Positions 1-41,683 of a DNA stretch of 41,972 nt are shown here, piece after piece. The notes beneath the pieces are model-generated. The model ran no database searches. It was not told the DNA's origin and worked only from the letters and a program-made list of their open reading frames with translations. The DNA is from Bdellovibrionales bacterium (GTDB lineage: Bacteria; Bdellovibrionota; UBA1018; CAIMNF01), in assembly GCA_040380025.1 (NCBI GenBank), contig JBEIJY010000020.1:1-41972 (forward strand), in the 5' to 3' direction. The translations under genes and the position numbers were made by a program. Every line of letters begins with the position of its first letter. Positions within the stretch are counted from its first letter, which is position 1.

Positions 1-60
1 CGGCTCATGAATCACCTGGCTCTATACGTCCGGTATCACAACACGGTGCTTCTCGGGTGA
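1..60 (+). CDS. 3' end of a gene truncated by the window edge; putative IS1-like transposase C-terminus
   Basis: Frame 1 reads RLMNHLALYVRYHNTVLLG*. The HL..Y..YHN tail resembles the end of IS1-related DDE transposases, and a PAL-type terminus follows. Only 19 codons are visible. Confidence 0.4.
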   Translation, partial: RLMNHLALYVRYHNTVLLG

Positions 61-97
61 GGTAAGCTCGATCTGAGCCCCTCACCCCCCTTGTTTA

Positions 98-119
98 GGA
101 ACAGCGAAAGGGGGCAGTT
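98..119 (-). mobile_element. Orphan PAL-type terminal repeat (candidate right end of an autonomous element)
   Basis: Reverse complement is AACTGCCCCCTTTCGCTGTTCC; its first 13 nt are identical to the termini at 976, 5506 and 41484. Confidence 0.6.
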
Positions 120-131
120 GGTTTGAACCAC

Positions 132-428
132 TCATGCTGCTTTCGGAGGAGCCATTTCCAATCCTGTTGCCGCGATGATTTTCACCAGAAGATCGCAAGA
201 AACGCTGACAGTTGCGCCATTCTTCACTGCTGAGACTTTGCTTCTGGCGACTCCGGAGCGTTTTACGATTTCATTCACAGTCAATTTGGATTTCTCCATC
301 GCCTTCACGGCAAGTGCGCTTAAATGAGCCTTGTATTTCATGAGAGCTGTATCGCTTTTTGAAAGACCGAGAATGTCTCCGATTTCATCTGCATTTTTTG
401 CGACAATATGGTTTTTATTCTTTTTCAT
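132..428 (-). CDS. XRE-family HTH antitoxin (HigA-like)
   Basis: 98 aa with HTH segment LTVNEIVKRSGVARSKVSAVKNG; lies downstream of and overlaps a RelE-like toxin. Confidence 0.85.
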   Translation of the reverse strand: MKKNKNHIVAKNADEIGDILGLSKSDTALMKYKAHLSALAVKAMEKSKLTVNEIVKRSGVARSKVSAVKNGATVSVSCDLLVKIIAATGLEMAPPKAA

Positions 429-771
429 TCTTCAATTCCTCCAAAAATATTTTCAATCTCTTTTTCCCGGTTTCGATTTCACTTTGGGGTGTTGCTCGGG
501 TTTTCTTTTTGAATCCATGAAATACCAGAATTCCGAGTTCAGTCTCAATCATGAAAAAAGCCCTGTAAATTCCATTTTGATCCTTGAGCCGGATTTCAGC
601 CGCTCCTTTTGCCAGTGAAGGCATGGGCCGTACATCAGGCATGCCAATCAGTTCACCCGATTGAAGCCGGGTGAGAACGGATCCCAAATCTTTTTTTGCT
701 TCCAAAGGCCAATCCCGCATTTCTTTCCGGGCCGGATCGTAGATGAAAACAAGATGCCTGAAACCCTTCAT
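415..771 (-). CDS. Type II toxin, RelE/HigB (Gp49/DUF891-like)
   Basis: 118 aa with EIRL...IYRAF...VFHGFKKKTRATP typical of Gp49/HigB toxins; toxin-first order. Confidence 0.85.
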   Translation of the reverse strand: MKGFRHLVFIYDPARKEMRDWPLEAKKDLGSVLTRLQSGELIGMPDVRPMPSLAKGAAEIRLKDQNGIYRAFFMIETELGILVFHGFKKKTRATPQSEIETGKKRLKIFLEELKNEKE

Positions 772-776
772 TTTTC

Positions 777-806
777 AAGTGTCCCATAAAAGGGACACTT
801 GGTCAA
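777..806 (-). promoter_or_regulatory. TA operon promoter with overlapping palindromic operator
   Basis: Perfect 9-bp inverted repeat AAGTGTCCC-N6-GGGACACTT (777-800). Minus strand reads TTGACC-17 nt-GACACT, ending 6 nt before the toxin ATG. Confidence 0.65.
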
Positions 807-975
807 TTGTTTCTTTACACGCAATCCATCCAGACGTTTCCATCCTGTGGCCCCCCATTTCCCGAAGGGGATCGCGGCTGCGATGGCCGAGCGGCCCAAG
901 CAGCCTTCAAGAGCAAAGACAAAATCTTGGCATACTCGTCAGGTGGACTATGCCCCGAAGAAAATAGGATGTTCA

Positions 976-1172
976 AACTGCCCCCTTTGAGTGTGCTTTT
1001 GCGCCAAGCGGTTGCGCGCCAAGGGGAGGGAATGACCTAATTATTGCCGACTCTCGCGTGCCAGGATGGCGAAAGCGAGGCGGGAGGACCCGGCTCGGAG
1101 GCAATAATTAAGTCATTCCCTCCCCTTGGCGCGCAACCGCTTGGCGCAAAAGCACACTCAAAGGGGACAGTT
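976..1172 (+). repeat. PAL-1: ~200-bp palindromic element
   Basis: 73-bp arms 976-1048 and 1100-1172 (2 mismatches) around the 51-nt core GACTCTCGCGTGCCAGGATGGCGAAAGCGAGGCGGGAGGACCCGGCTCGGA. Confidence 0.95.
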
Positions 1173-1217
1173 GGTTTGCTCTGGACAACCCCGCAACCCC
1201 CTTTTTATCCTGTATCC

Positions 1218-1673
1218 ATGTCTCTCACCGCGCGCCACAAGAAGCCAGGAGCCTTCCGGAAACTCGTGAACTCGCTCGAGATCACCCCGCAGGATCGTCG
1301 TGCAAAGATCTTGAATGCGATGCGGGTGGAAGATCCGGATTTCGTGACCGCGGTCGAGAAATGCCTCTTTGAGTTCGCCGAATTCAAGAACCTGAACGAG
1401 ATGATCCTTGCCGATGTCGTGTACGCCATGAAGGACGACATGCGCTCGGTCGCGATTGCCCTCTACAAATGCAAGGACGAGGAGCTCCTGGGCAAATTCG
1501 TGAAGAGCATGCTTCCTGCACAAGGCTCGGCATTCAAAGAGGAACTCAGCATGCTGACCGCGATCACCGTGGGCCAGCAAAAGGGCGCGCAATTCAAGGT
1601 GATCGAAAAGGCGCGGGAGCTGCAGGAGAATGGCGTTGTTACCATTAAGGAATATGCGCCGCAGTATACCTAG
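1218..1673 (+). CDS. FliG C-terminal domain-containing protein (stand-alone paralogue)
   Basis: 151 aa from ATG 1218. EDPDFVTAVEKCLFEFAEF and QKGAQFKVIEKARELQENGVV resemble FliG_C. The upstream ORF extension lies in PAL-1. Confidence 0.75.
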   Translation: MSLTARHKKPGAFRKLVNSLEITPQDRRAKILNAMRVEDPDFVTAVEKCLFEFAEFKNLNEMILADVVYAMKDDMRSVAIALYKCKDEELLGKFVKSMLPAQGSAFKEELSMLTAITVGQQKGAQFKVIEKARELQENGVVTIKEYAPQYT

Positions 1674-4840: not shown

Positions 4841-5533
4841 TTGAGCCTTGATGCGCGAATCCGACACGCCTTTGGCACCCAATCTGAGCCCAAGGGACAT
4901 CTTCATCCCGAAGAGTGGGAGCGCCTTCGCCCGCGCTGGAAGCAAGTGCACGGCATCGCGGTCGCACGCGTGACCGCTCCCGAAGAGGAATGCGGAGAGG
5001 TCGACGCGCTCTGGACGAGCGAGCGGTCACTGCCGATTGCCGTCGTGACCGCCGATTGTGTTCCCATTTTACTTGAGCGGCATGACCGGTCTGCCGTGGC
5101 GGCGATCCATGCCGGGTGGCGGGGGACCCATGCGGGCATCATCGAAGCGTTTTTTCAGGCTCTTCCGAAGGAGTTCGCCGACCCCGCGCTCTGGAGCGCA
5201 CGAATCGGTCCTTGCATTCAGGCCTGCTGTTATGAGGTGAGCGAGGATCTGATGGATTCGTTTGTTGGCCGGTTTTCTGGCCGGTTTTTTGGGCTGGATC
5301 GTCGGCAAATCGAGCCCGCGTGGCGCAAGCTCGATCTGGTTGCCGTGAATCATGCCGTGCTTTCGGGCCTCGGGGTGAATGTGCGCGAGATCCACCCCGA
5401 TTGCACTCATTGTACGAAACAGGGGGAGGGCTTCCGGTACTTCAGCTATCGGCGCGGGGACCGGAACTCGCGGCAGTTTTCTGTGATCTCGATCGAACAA
5501 TTGCCAACTGCCCCCTTTGATTGTGCTTTGTGA
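4841..5533 (+). CDS. pgeF: Peptidoglycan editing factor PgeF/YfiH (laccase-domain protein)
   Basis: QVHG, TADCVPILL, HAGWRG, GPCI..CCYEV, FSYRR motifs. TTG start uncertain; the last codons lie in PAL-2. Confidence 0.9.
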   Translation: MSLDARIRHAFGTQSEPKGHLHPEEWERLRPRWKQVHGIAVARVTAPEEECGEVDALWTSERSLPIAVVTADCVPILLERHDRSAVAAIHAGWRGTHAGIIEAFFQALPKEFADPALWSARIGPCIQACCYEVSEDLMDSFVGRFSGRFFGLDRRQIEPAWRKLDLVAVNHAVLSGLGVNVREIHPDCTHCTKQGEGFRYFSYRRGDRNSRQFSVISIEQLPTAPFDCAL

Positions 5534-5709
5534 ATGAGGGAGCGCCGGGAAAGGTCTACGGGATCATTCGGTTTTTGCCGACTCTCGCGAGCGCGTGACG
5601 CGCGAAAGCGAGGCCGCACGACGCGGCTCGGAGGCAAAAACCGAATGATCCCGTAGACTTTTCCCGTGCTCCCTCGTTTTGTAAGAACAATCAAAGGGGG
5701 CAGTTGGCA
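5502..5709 (+). repeat. PAL-2: ~200-bp palindromic element
   Basis: Arms 5502-5579 and 5633-5709 around the 53-nt core GACTCTCGCGAGCGCGTGACGCGCGAAAGCGAGGCCGCACGACGCGGCTCGGA. Confidence 0.95.
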
Positions 5710-33882: not shown

Positions 33883-34823
33883 AAAAAAAGGTTCTGCTGA
33901 CCGGGGCCGCGGGATTTGTCGGAAGCCATCTGGCCGAGCGGCTTTTGGCCGAAGGCTTTGCGGTGACCGGGGTCGATAATCTGTGCACCGGCCGCAAAAA
34001 GAATCTCGAGACCTTCCGGGATCATCCGGATTTTTCGTTCCTCGAGGCCGATGTGATCGAGGATCTGCCCGCTGAGGTCTGCAACACCCGCTGGGACTGG
34101 GTGATGCACTTCGCGTCTCCGGCTTCTCCGCCGAAGTATTTCGCCCTGCCGCTCGAGACCATGCGGGTGAACAGCGAGGCGACCCGGAAGCTATTGGAGA
34201 TTTGCCGCCGCCAGGGCGCACGCTTTTTTTATGCCTCGACCTCGGAGGTGTATGGCGATCCGCTGGTCCATCCCCAGCCGGAGTCGTATTGGGGGAATGT
34301 GAACCCGATCGGCGTGCGTTCGATTTACGACGAGGCCAAGCGCTACGGCGAGGCAATGACGTATTCGTATCAACGCACGCACGGGGTCGATGTGCGGGTG
34401 ATCCGCATCTTCAACACCTATGGCCCGCGGATGGACCCCGAAGACGGACGCGTGGTCACGAATTTGATGTTCCAGGCCCTGCGCGGCGAGCCCATGACGA
34501 TTTACGGCGACGGGCTCCAGACCCGGAGCTTTCAGTATGTTTCGGATCTGGTCGAGGGAGTCGTGCGGCTCATGGCCTCGAACCACACCGGACCGGTGAA
34601 CCTCGGAAACCCGGGCGAGTTCACGATTCTCGCCTTTGCCGATGTGGTGAAGCGCCTCGTTCGGACGAAAAGCGAGCTTCGGTTCGAGCCGCTTCCGTCG
34701 GATGATCCGAAGCAGAGAAAGCCCGAGATCTCGCTCGCCCGAAGCCTCCTGCAGTGGGAACCCCGGGTGGATCTCGAGGCGGGGCTAGCGCTCACGCTCG
34801 GGTTCTTCCGCGATCACGAGTAA
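33879..34823 (+). CDS. uxs: UDP-glucuronate decarboxylase (UDP-xylose synthase)
   Basis: GAAGFVG, ASPASP, STSEVYGDP, YDEAKR, RIFNTYGPRM; start at MKKKV overlapping the ugd stop. Confidence 0.93.
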   Translation: MKKKVLLTGAAGFVGSHLAERLLAEGFAVTGVDNLCTGRKKNLETFRDHPDFSFLEADVIEDLPAEVCNTRWDWVMHFASPASPPKYFALPLETMRVNSEATRKLLEICRRQGARFFYASTSEVYGDPLVHPQPESYWGNVNPIGVRSIYDEAKRYGEAMTYSYQRTHGVDVRVIRIFNTYGPRMDPEDGRVVTNLMFQALRGEPMTIYGDGLQTRSFQYVSDLVEGVVRLMASNHTGPVNLGNPGEFTILAFADVVKRLVRTKSELRFEPLPSDDPKQRKPEISLARSLLQWEPRVDLEAGLALTLGFFRDHE

Positions 34824-35018
34824 GCTGCCCCCTTTGATTGTGCTTTTGCGCCATGCGCGCACGCCCAAGGGGTGGGAATGATTTAGTTTTTGCCTCCGAG
34901 CCGGGTCCTCCGGCCTCGCTTTCGCCATCCTGGCTCGCGAGAGTCGGCAAGAACTAAATCATTCCCACCCCTTGGGCGTGCGCGCATGGCGCAAAAGCAC
35001 AATCAAAGGGGGCAGTTT
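34822..35018 (-). repeat. PAL-4: ~200-bp palindromic element (core on minus strand)
   Basis: Arms 34822-34894 and 34946-35018 (2 mismatches); core 34895-34945 is 49/51 identical to the PAL-1 core. Confidence 0.95.
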
Positions 35019-36443: not shown

Positions 36444-36643
36444 CAAACTGGCCTCCTTGACTGCGCCTAATTTCAAAGCTCGAACGGCGAACTGCCCGAA
36501 ATAAAAATGGTTTTGCCTCCAAGCCGGGTCGTCCGGCCTCGCTTCCGCCATCCTGGCTCGCGAGAGTCGGCCAAACCATTTTTATTACGGGTACTTCGCT
36601 GTTCAAGCCTCCGTAATTAAGCGCAGTCAAGGAGGCCAGTTTG
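36444..36643 (-). repeat. PAL-5: ~200-bp palindromic element (core on minus strand)
   Basis: Arms 36444-36517 and 36569-36643 with terminus variant CAAACTGGCCTCCTTGACTGCGC on both arms; 51-nt core 36518-36568. Confidence 0.93.
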
Positions 36644-37250: not shown

Positions 37251-37446
37251 AAACTGCCTTACTTGATTGTGCAGAATTAAAAGAAGCACTTCGGCAAGTC
37301 CCTGAAAGTAGAATCATTCTTCTGGATCGGGAGCATGGCGAAAGATCGGCTGGGTCCGAATGTCGGACTTGATGGCAAAATCTTCCGTCCTTTTGCATGG
37401 TTCTCGCGTGCGATTTTTAACTCTGCACAATTGATTCAGGCAGTTT
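37251..37446 (+). repeat. PAL-6: degenerate palindromic element
   Basis: Termini AAACTGCCTTACTTGATTGTGCAGAATTAAAA and TTTTAACTCTGCACAATTGATTCAGGCAGTTT 196 bp apart; core relic ATGGCGAAAG...TCGGA. Confidence 0.8.
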
Positions 37447-38023
37447 AGAAGTCGAACCGGTTCAGCGACCCCTCGCCCACCGCCGGAGCTTTCCGCTCCT
37501 CCTCCGACGCGGGCCTTCTGTCCTTCATCTTGGGCTGCTTGGATTCACCCAAAACCGGAGCCGCGCTCTCGTTTCTCTCGTCGCCGTCCGGGTACCACTG
37601 GGTCGGAGCCGGGTCGAGCGTGAAGGGCTTCCAGTTTCCGCCGAGGAGCTGGTTCGAGAGGGCAATCTTGTCGAAGTCTTTTTCTTTCGGGTCCTGAAAC
37701 GCCTGGAGCGCCGGTTGGAACGGCACCCCGAGGATCGCGCGTCGGATCAGCGGCCTGGTTTTTTCGCCCAACCGGTAGCCGATCACCATGACCTTCTTGC
37801 CCTCGACGCGGTCATCGAGCTTGGCCGAGAGCCCCTTCAGCGACCCCTTCGGGTAAACGTGAATCTCGAGGTTCCCCTCCCATTCAATCACATCGACACG
37901 CTTGCCGGACGGGCCTTTTCCGTCGAGGCGGTCAAAAACCTCTTCTGCGAACACCGCAACCGAGGCCAGGATGCCGCTTGCGATTGCCGACAGGACGAGG
38001 AGCGTACGAAACGAGGGAATCAT
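37445..38023 (-). CDS. Secreted hypothetical protein
   Basis: Signal peptide ending AVFA; start uncertain (38023 or 38038); stop overlaps the PAL-6 end. Confidence 0.75.
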   Translation of the reverse strand: MIPSFRTLLVLSAIASGILASVAVFAEEVFDRLDGKGPSGKRVDVIEWEGNLEIHVYPKGSLKGLSAKLDDRVEGKKVMVIGYRLGEKTRPLIRRAILGVPFQPALQAFQDPKEKDFDKIALSNQLLGGNWKPFTLDPAPTQWYPDGDERNESAAPVLGESKQPKMKDRRPASEEERKAPAVGEGSLNRFDF

Positions 38024-38082
38024 GACGGAGGGTCTCATTACTGACACTATCGTCAAGGTTCCGGCGGAACTTGAGCCATTTT

Positions 38083-38284
38083 CAAACTGCCTCATTTGAT
38101 TGTGCATAGTAAGGGAGCGGGACTGGCAGAGGGCGTTGGAATGATTTCGTTTTTCTGTACGGGCCGGGTCGTCCCAGTTTCGCTCAGATCATCGTGGCGC
38201 ACGGAGGTCGGTAAAAACCAAATCATTCCAGTATCTTAATTTTCGCCGCTCGCATAATTATGCACAACCAAATCAGGCAGTTTG
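38083..38284 (-). repeat. PAL-7: partly degenerate palindromic element (core on minus strand)
   Basis: Termini CAAACTGCCTCATTTGATTGTGCATA and TATGCACAACCAAATCAGGCAGTTTG; inner GGAATGATTT/AAATCATTCC; core relic GCCGGGTCGTCC...GTCGG. Confidence 0.88.
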
Positions 38285-41481: not shown

Positions 41482-41683
41482 CAAACTGCCCCCTTTCATT
41501 GTGCTTGATGGGGCAGTGGGATGAGGAGAAGGGATTGGGATGATTCGGTTTTCCCCGACTCTCGCGAGGCAGGATTGCCGACAGCGAGGCCGCAGGACGC
41601 GGTTCGGAGGAGAAAATCGAATTATTCCAATCCCTTATCTTCATCCCTCGGCACAAAAAAGCACAGGCAAAGGGGGCAGTTTG
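41482..41683 (+). repeat. PAL-8: ~200-bp palindromic element
   Basis: Arms 41482-41556 and 41609-41683 around the 52-nt core GACTCTCGCGAGGCAGGATTGCCGACAGCGAGGCCGCAGGACGCGGTTCGGA. Confidence 0.93.

Follow-up and report, generated by a model that had tools for sequence, protein, structure and literature searches.

The DNA analyzed here, referred to as the window, is a stretch of 41,972 nt taken from contig C20 of genome G000 (C20:1-41972), so that its base 1 is the first base of the contig. Its left edge is occupied by the right-hand end of an insertion sequence (IS), and short repeats termed PALs lie further in. The features were placed as follows, in window coordinates.

1-119, plus strand: final 119 nt, on the right side, of an insertion sequence of 1,060 bp with about three copies (word depth; ends lying at contig ends)
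1-60, plus strand: 3' end of the transposase gene, last 19 codons and stop (from the sequence; the C terminus of protein P0006, described below, has the same 19 residues)
61-97, plus strand: non-coding spacer of 37 nt from the stop codon to the right terminal inverted repeat (from the sequence)
98-119, plus strand: right terminal inverted repeat, IRR (identity with the copy on contig C46 stops at 119)
976-1172, no strand: PAL copy of 197 nt, presumed non-autonomous partner (MITE)
5506-5705, no strand: PAL copy of 200 nt
34823-35017, no strand: PAL copy of 195 nt with a degenerate left end (AGCTG)
36446-36641, no strand: PAL-type element with variant ends (AACTGGCCTCC…)
37252-37445, no strand: element of ∼194 nt (I20) whose ends are of the same type (AACTGCCTTACTTGATTGTGCA) and whose interior is not palindromic
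38085-38284, no strand: PAL-type element of 200 nt
41484-41681, no strand: PAL copy of 198 nt

Positions 1-57 were translated in frame 1 to RLMNHLALYVRYHNTVLLG, followed by a stop codon at 58-60, which agrees with the ORF ending at 60 that had been reported in the initial annotation. The transposase ORF is cut at base 1 of the window because the assembly breaks there and not for a biological reason. The 22-mer GGAACAGCGAAAGGGGGCAGTT was located at 98-119, which places its start 38 nt past the ORF end as first described (98 - 60 = 38), with 37 nt between the two. Within this IRR, GGGGGCAGTT is the terminal box and GGAACAGCG the inner one. The last 13 nt of the 22-mer read AACTGCCCCCTTT when reverse-complemented, and the proposed identity with PAL termini at 13 of 13 positions was reproduced: the same 13-mer forms the ends of the PALs at 976-1172, 5506-5705 and 41484-41681 and the right end of the PAL at 34823-35017. 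It occurs 50 times in the 2.35-Mb genome versus 0.07 occurrences expected from base composition, and the shorter 10-mer AACTGCCCCC occurs 60 times versus 7.5 expected. This 10-mer terminus motif lies within 260 nt of 20 of the 106 contig ends. Positions 1-97 had been described as free of a PAL core or second arm, and in a BLAST search of 1-130 against the genome the PALs matched 104-128 only. An Rfam search of positions 1-1400 gave no match at E ≤ 1.

The same BLAST search returned two further copies of the right end. The copy at C46:214-332 is 100% identical to window 1-119, and the copy at C38:18961-18841 is 97.5% identical over window 1-121. The spacer at 61-97 is identical in the C46 copy and has one difference, at window position 75, in the C38 copy. 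Each of these right ends is 213 nt away from a contig end, and identity stops at CAGTT in both. The right boundary of the element may be 2 nt further out, at 121, where identity with the C38 copy stops. In the last 270 nt of C38 (locus L005) the otherwise invariant motif LNHTCAM reads LNHPCEM, and given these substitutions that transposase copy may be inactive.

The IS end is adjoined on the minus strand, at 132-771, by a toxin-antitoxin-like gene pair. One member is a 118-aa Gp49/HigB-like protein (PF05973, E 2.3e-17) and the other an overlapping 98-aa HTH_37 protein (E 1.2e-7), whose stop codon is 12 nt from the IS terminus. Just past the first PAL, at 1200-1673, a FliG C-terminal domain (PF01706, E 1.3e-10) was identified in an ORF of only ∼157-209 aa.

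Three left ends of the element were located in the genome, at the end of C40 and at the starts of C5 and C23. They begin CA-AACTGCCCCCCGAGCC… (in a longer reading CA-AACTGCCCCCCGAGCCTGCGCTTTCC…), and the right end of the element reads …GCGAAAGGGGGCAGTT. The flanks of the three left ends diverge immediately outside CA-AACTG, and 89 nt into the element an ATG opens the codons MKRCCPNPNC…. A left end matching the PAL terminus had been anticipated; one was found at each of these contig ends, although its sequence, AACTGCCCCC-CGAGCC…, has 10 nt rather than 13 in common with the PAL end. The left (IRL) and right inverted repeats are imperfect. Common to both are AACTGCCCCC, which forms a 10-nt terminal box, and the inner box CGCT(G)TTCCT, whose spacing differs between the two ends. 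On C40 (L003, 1726-1807) ARAGORN predicted a tRNA-Met gene, and one IS left end follows 4 nt downstream of it.

Contigs of four public sequencing runs (X1-X4) were aligned to window 1-1300. Run X1, which is possibly from the same sample or source as this assembly and is thus not counted as independent, contains a contig of 1,060 nt whose positions 942-1060 equal window 1-119 with zero differences and which ends exactly at 119. The left end of the element was placed at the start of this contig by arithmetic alone, the 89 nt before the ORF, the 912-nt ORF with its stop codon and the remaining 59 nt summing to 1,060. P0006 is a 303-aa protein from a 1,060-nt Logan contig, encoded by an uninterrupted ORF; its N-terminal 35 residues are identical to the end of C40, and its C-terminal 90 and 19 to the C46 fragment and the window, respectively. 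This assembly lacks the central part of the IS, which was obtained solely from P0006 and the X1 contig. In run X1 the word depth was 66.8 on the 1,060-nt IS contig versus 21.5 on unique flank, and therefore about three copies of the IS are present. The IS whose right end occupies window 1-119 is multi-copy and breaks the assembly.

Neither an empty site nor a contig bridging the IS was found among runs X1-X4 over window 1-1300. A single joint, from 119 to 975, was rejected as a real junction and attributed to a repeat artefact, having only 24 nt on one side and lying between two similar termini. Among the three left and three right IS flanks no 9-bp duplication could be paired, with or without a 2-nt offset, a comparison limited by broken contigs in which the true left-right partners are uncertain.

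The full ORF encodes a transposase consisting of a zinc ribbon, a helix-turn-helix (HTH) and an RNase-H-fold core, in line with what had been proposed from its C-terminal tail. The zinc ribbon follows the pattern CxxxxC…CxxC, with conserved residues C5, C10, C50 and C53, and together with the HTH is homologous to IS1 InsAB'. Comparison with an InsAB' alignment in hhalign gave E 6.5e-6 and a probability of 85% over residues 1-109 (zinc ribbon and HTH), using an IS1 profile that is shallow because the best 120 of 1,099 homologue matches were nearly all enterobacterial IS1. The structure was predicted with AlphaFold2 from a 52-sequence alignment (mean pLDDT 90.4), and in the model helices at 73-122 precede the beta core. 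A Foldseek search of the PDB produced 13 matches at E ≤ 0.001. The best 13 ranked chains listed were all transposases or integrases, namely the ISCth4 transposase (E 1.2e-5), the RSV, MMTV, Visna and HIV-2 integrases and Mu transposase; TnsB was also among the best matches. A profile search of the PDB by sequence returned zinc-finger/HTH noise only.

An IS1-like C terminus had also been suggested, and this was borne out by a weak hhalign alignment with E. coli InsB (E 0.014), in which SDxxPxY is paired with TDGWPLY and LRANxxRLxRRTWCTTK with LRQHLARLGRKSLSFSK. With a threshold of E ≤ 0.01, 50 of the 52 family members matched the NCBIfam IS1 model NF033558, the best at E 3.5e-15. The curated cut-off of this model is 100 bits, and the two full-length copies in the present genome scored 37.5 and 41.7. 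Other NCBIfam models touched by the 52 members were ISL3 (32 members), IS1595 NF033547 (2) and IS256 (4-6). Pfam gave no catalytic-domain match, including PF03400, for the copies of this genome or for the 52 family members, and PF12762 or PF12760 was touched by one of the 52. In the ESM Atlas, the nearest clusters carrying any Pfam family all carry PF03400 (DDE_Tnp_IS1).

Three positions, D134, D213 and R266, are conserved in all 52 members, followed by N259 (51/52), D253 (50/52) and E246 (45/52). N259 is predicted to be the third catalytic position because it lies on the helix after strand 5 with the basic R266 seven residues on; D253 and E246 are the candidate alternatives. Two of the three acids of a D, D, E/D set (D134 and D213) are invariant, and the predicted third residue is an asparagine instead of an acid, which makes the catalytic competence of the protein putative. 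IS1 has a glutamate at its third catalytic position, where a hand alignment puts N259 (51/52 members), a pairing made by hand in columns that hhalign left unpaired.

Homologues of the transposase were collected from sequence databases, and 4,030 of 4,232 candidates belonged to the family at E ≤ 0.001, with 1,304 cluster representatives at 50% identity under the same threshold. In species-representative genomes, 538 of 556 candidate stretches were confirmed by a search with a 12-sequence alignment. By record titles, the 80 loci kept are mostly from Bdellovibrionota, with a few from Fibrobacteria. Public names for members are 'hypothetical protein' or 'transposase-like protein' at JGI, and two NCBI members that were checked are both named 'hypothetical protein'. 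Full-text literature searches gave, among the matches listed, no description of this transposase family or of MITEs in Bdellovibrio-like bacteria.

Inverted repeats were sought at the 69 loci from other genomes with enough flanking sequence. NN-AACTG inverted ends were scored at 60 of these, so the expectation that homologues carry the terminus was upheld; the other nine were left unscored, and three of them also have a pair. The 60 elements are 963-1137 bp long (median 1009). A 9-bp direct repeat matching at ≥ 7 of 9 positions flanks 11 of the 60 copies, six of them perfectly, versus 0.3% in a shuffled-pair control; the repeats begin 2 nt outside AACTG, and many copies carry no recognizable repeat. 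The idea that IS copies insert between mutually inverted-repeat flanks was dropped, the excess over the 60 copies being weak (6 versus 1.7 expected at ≥ 10/18 and 1 versus 0.4 at ≥ 11). Among the closest database homologues, about 20 of 120 (in P0034-P0123) have a C terminus reading …KGGS, …LGAS or similar. Such tails are the one-frame translation of GGGGGCAGT, which suggests, as read from protein C termini rather than from DNA, that the ORF may run through the right terminal repeat in many family members.

Two full-length, diverged transposase copies that lack their own IS ends were located in this genome, on C5 (L001, 903-2243) and C12 (L002, 1258-2570). Their ORFs are single and uninterrupted, fall in the range of 303-307 aa and encode proteins 63.6% identical over 302 aa. 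Each gene has a complete PAL/MITE of ∼185-200 bp on either side, and in both copies the right-hand MITE begins at an identical point within the final codons (…HNTVLL|PNCP…). No 9-bp duplication was seen at the inner or outer MITE junctions of L001 and L002. L026 is a further locus with a MITE, there immediately upstream of the gene. The MITE-transposase-MITE arrangement could be a MITE-capped composite element or an insertion hotspot. A similar layout, with another gene in the middle, was observed within the window at 37252-38284, where a 220-aa minus-strand ORF (37445-38107) sits between the elements at 37252-37445 and 38085-38284 and has its listed start codon inside the right-hand one.

The PALs are ∼197 bp long and lack an ORF. 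Many are long, near-perfect palindromes with a conserved central core, and their arms vary between copies with complementarity kept (I2 and I3 are 97% complementary). About 30 complete PALs are present in the genome versus about three copies of the IS. A 9-bp repeat at ≥ 7 of 9 positions, in the register of the IS copies, flanks 8 of the 32 PAL-type elements of this genome (three perfect; control 0.6%), and the small number keeping a recognizable duplication indicates that many insertions are old. The target duplication is thus alike in IS copies and PALs in its length of 9 bp and in its start 2 nt outside AACTG. PAL ends have 13 of 13 nt in common with the IRR and 10 nt in common with the IRL of the window IS. 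One PAL subfamily (…TTTGAGTGTTCCTGA) additionally has the inner TGTTCCT box in common with the IRR, and 21 of 25 positions, counted by eye, agree between the end of this subfamily, AACTGCCCCCTTTGAGTGTTCCTGA, and the IRR.

Matched pairs of full-length and miniature elements were also found in a relative, G002, which contains two IS subfamilies, each with cognate ∼197-bp elements whose ends match over 18-22 nt. Ends of the AACTGCCCTCGAAGATTG subfamily bracket the transposase genes at C1:527685-528693 and C3:507477-508485, and 13 pairs of the same 18-mer, with C at the N position, delimit elements of ∼175-200 bp. Those of the AACTGGCCTCTTTGAATGGGCA subfamily bracket genes at C1:476013-477037 and C4:88352-89376, with 12 pairs of the same ends at ∼176-220 bp. 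The termini of the miniature elements therefore follow those of the resident IS. Three G002 MITEs with the different termini AACTGGCCTCTTTGAATGGGCA (C1:484365-484562, C4:173525-173722 and C5:155098-155295) carry the central motifs of the PALs, …GCCGACTCTC… and, on the other strand, …GCCTCCGAGC…, ∼70-80 nt from each end, which implies that the PAL core is conserved across species and terminus subfamilies. A second MITE type in G002 is without the PAL core.

Co-occurrence was surveyed among 41 relatives, 15 of which contain the transposase. At least two length-restricted matches to a terminus pair were obtained in five genomes, all five of them transposase-positive; the genomes surveyed are kin and not independent observations. 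Seven of the 15 transposase-positive genomes gave no match to the pattern at MITE length, and five of the 26 transposase-negative genomes gave one match each, a chance-like level. In G013 the reversed-pattern control was as high as the pattern itself (3 versus 3).

These comparisons support the proposal of the initial annotation that an element with PAL ends encodes the enzyme that mobilizes the PALs, and the transposase of the window IS likely acts on these ∼197-bp repeats in trans. The N-terminal zinc ribbon and HTH would recognize the terminal repeat, and the core would cleave at the ends and join them to target DNA cut with a 9-bp stagger. Any segment of DNA between two such ends could then be moved by transposase that the IS supplies. 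PALs, at ∼197 bp, without an ORF and with two such ends, would on this basis be candidates for mobilization in trans. We assign a probability of about 0.8 to the reading in which window 1-119 ends a 1,060-bp IS whose transposase is predicted to bind AACTGCCCCC termini and likely moves the PALs in trans.

The competing account closest to this one is that PALs and the window IS have only the ancestry of their termini in common and that the PALs are or were moved by another member of the same transposase family, either a C5- or C12-type copy or a lost IS matching PAL ends over ∼22 nt. It draws on the length of the matches, the window IS agreeing with PAL ends over 13 nt at the IRR and 10 nt at the IRL where cognate pairs in G002 agree over 18-22 nt, and on the elements flanking the C12 copy, which have AACTGCCCGCTTTGATTGTGCA ends and are closer to the main PAL type. 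The age of many PAL insertions, read from the few duplications still recognizable, points the same way. However, within this genome only the window-type IS, of all elements of the family, occurs in several near-identical copies, and tblastn of this assembly revealed no other intact element with closer ends. Its protein is moreover identical to the C5 copy at 250 of 303 residues, and the inner TGTTCCT box of the IRR recurs in one PAL subfamily. A different driver from the same family is accordingly considered unlikely.

An origin of the PALs as hairpin elements that multiply through replication slippage or through a REP/IS200-IS605-type process acting on single strands, with the shared 13-mer a convergent or secondary feature, would fit their near-perfect palindromes and arms that differ between copies yet remain complementary. 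IS200/IS605-type elements are not known to make either terminal inverted repeats or target duplications, whereas the PALs have terminal inverted repeats and 9-bp direct duplications in the register of the IS copies; MITE termini also co-vary with IS termini in G002. This origin is regarded as very improbable. The chance that the likeness between the 22-mer and the PAL terminus is fortuitous and the ORF an ordinary cellular gene is negligible, as a coincidence is refuted by the 50 occurrences of the 13-mer against 0.07 expected and a cellular gene by an ORF that is multi-copy, bounded by inverted repeats and of transposase fold.

In comparison with known systems, IS1 appears from profile searches to be the closest family, as a distant relative whose scores fall below curated thresholds. 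The order of domains is the same (zinc ribbon, HTH, DDE-type core), the N-terminal regions are homologous, and the motif around the second aspartate and the C-terminal R/K-rich helix align. The target duplication of IS1 is 9 bp (8-9 bp in the family), as for the elements described here. In contrast, the scores here are ∼40 bits against a cut-off of 100 with no match to PF03400, and the transposase is encoded by a single ORF of 303-307 aa, unlike the classical IS1 transposase, in which insA and insB' are joined by a -1 frameshift. The elements here are also longer, at ∼1.0-1.06 kb versus 768 bp for IS1A, and their termini start NN-AACTG.

The IS1595 family comprises distant relatives of IS1, some with N or H replacing the catalytic E, and resembles the present transposase in having one ORF of ∼300 aa, an N-terminal zinc ribbon and a third position of the D-D-N type followed by a basic residue, and for an asparagine at that position it is the nearest analogue. 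It differs in that its models were touched by few members (NF033547 by 2/52, PF12762 or PF12760 by 1/52) and in that most IS1595 groups make an 8-bp target duplication, whereas that found here is 9 bp. The best Foldseek match, ISCth4 of the IS256 family (PDB 6xg8), has an RNase-H-fold DDE core in common with the model, but at ∼10% sequence identity and a TM-score of 0.38, and the IS256 NCBIfam models were touched by 4-6 of the 52 members.

As in other prokaryotic MITE/IS pairs, the ORF-less PALs have the termini and duplication length of the IS, occur alongside it in this genome and outnumber it. They depart from such pairs in that many are long, near-perfect palindromes with a conserved central core and in that their length of ∼197 bp is kept across terminus subfamilies and genomes. 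The system is most likely a conventional DDE insertion sequence with its MITEs, from an IS1-like family whose annotation is poor. A broader formulation can be made, in which the window IS belongs to a founding, as yet uncurated Bdellovibrionota IS family, IS1-related and of 'D-D-N' type, with NN-AACTG ends and genus-wide ∼197-bp MITEs carrying a conserved two-hairpin core that is portable between terminus subfamilies. Complete MITEs could in addition take the place of lost IS ends, as at the C5 and C12 copies, and thereby restore mobile carriers of the transposase; we consider this formulation doubtful.

The biology is that of an ordinary IS with MITEs and introduces no new principle; the value of the result lies in annotation and in explaining the PALs. 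A likely engine has been identified for these repeats, which break this assembly, and they are given a testable mechanism, DDE transposition with 9-bp duplications. A large transposase family that has no Pfam model is also flagged, and a curated model would make it easier to annotate both IS elements and assembly gaps in genomes of Bdellovibrionota.
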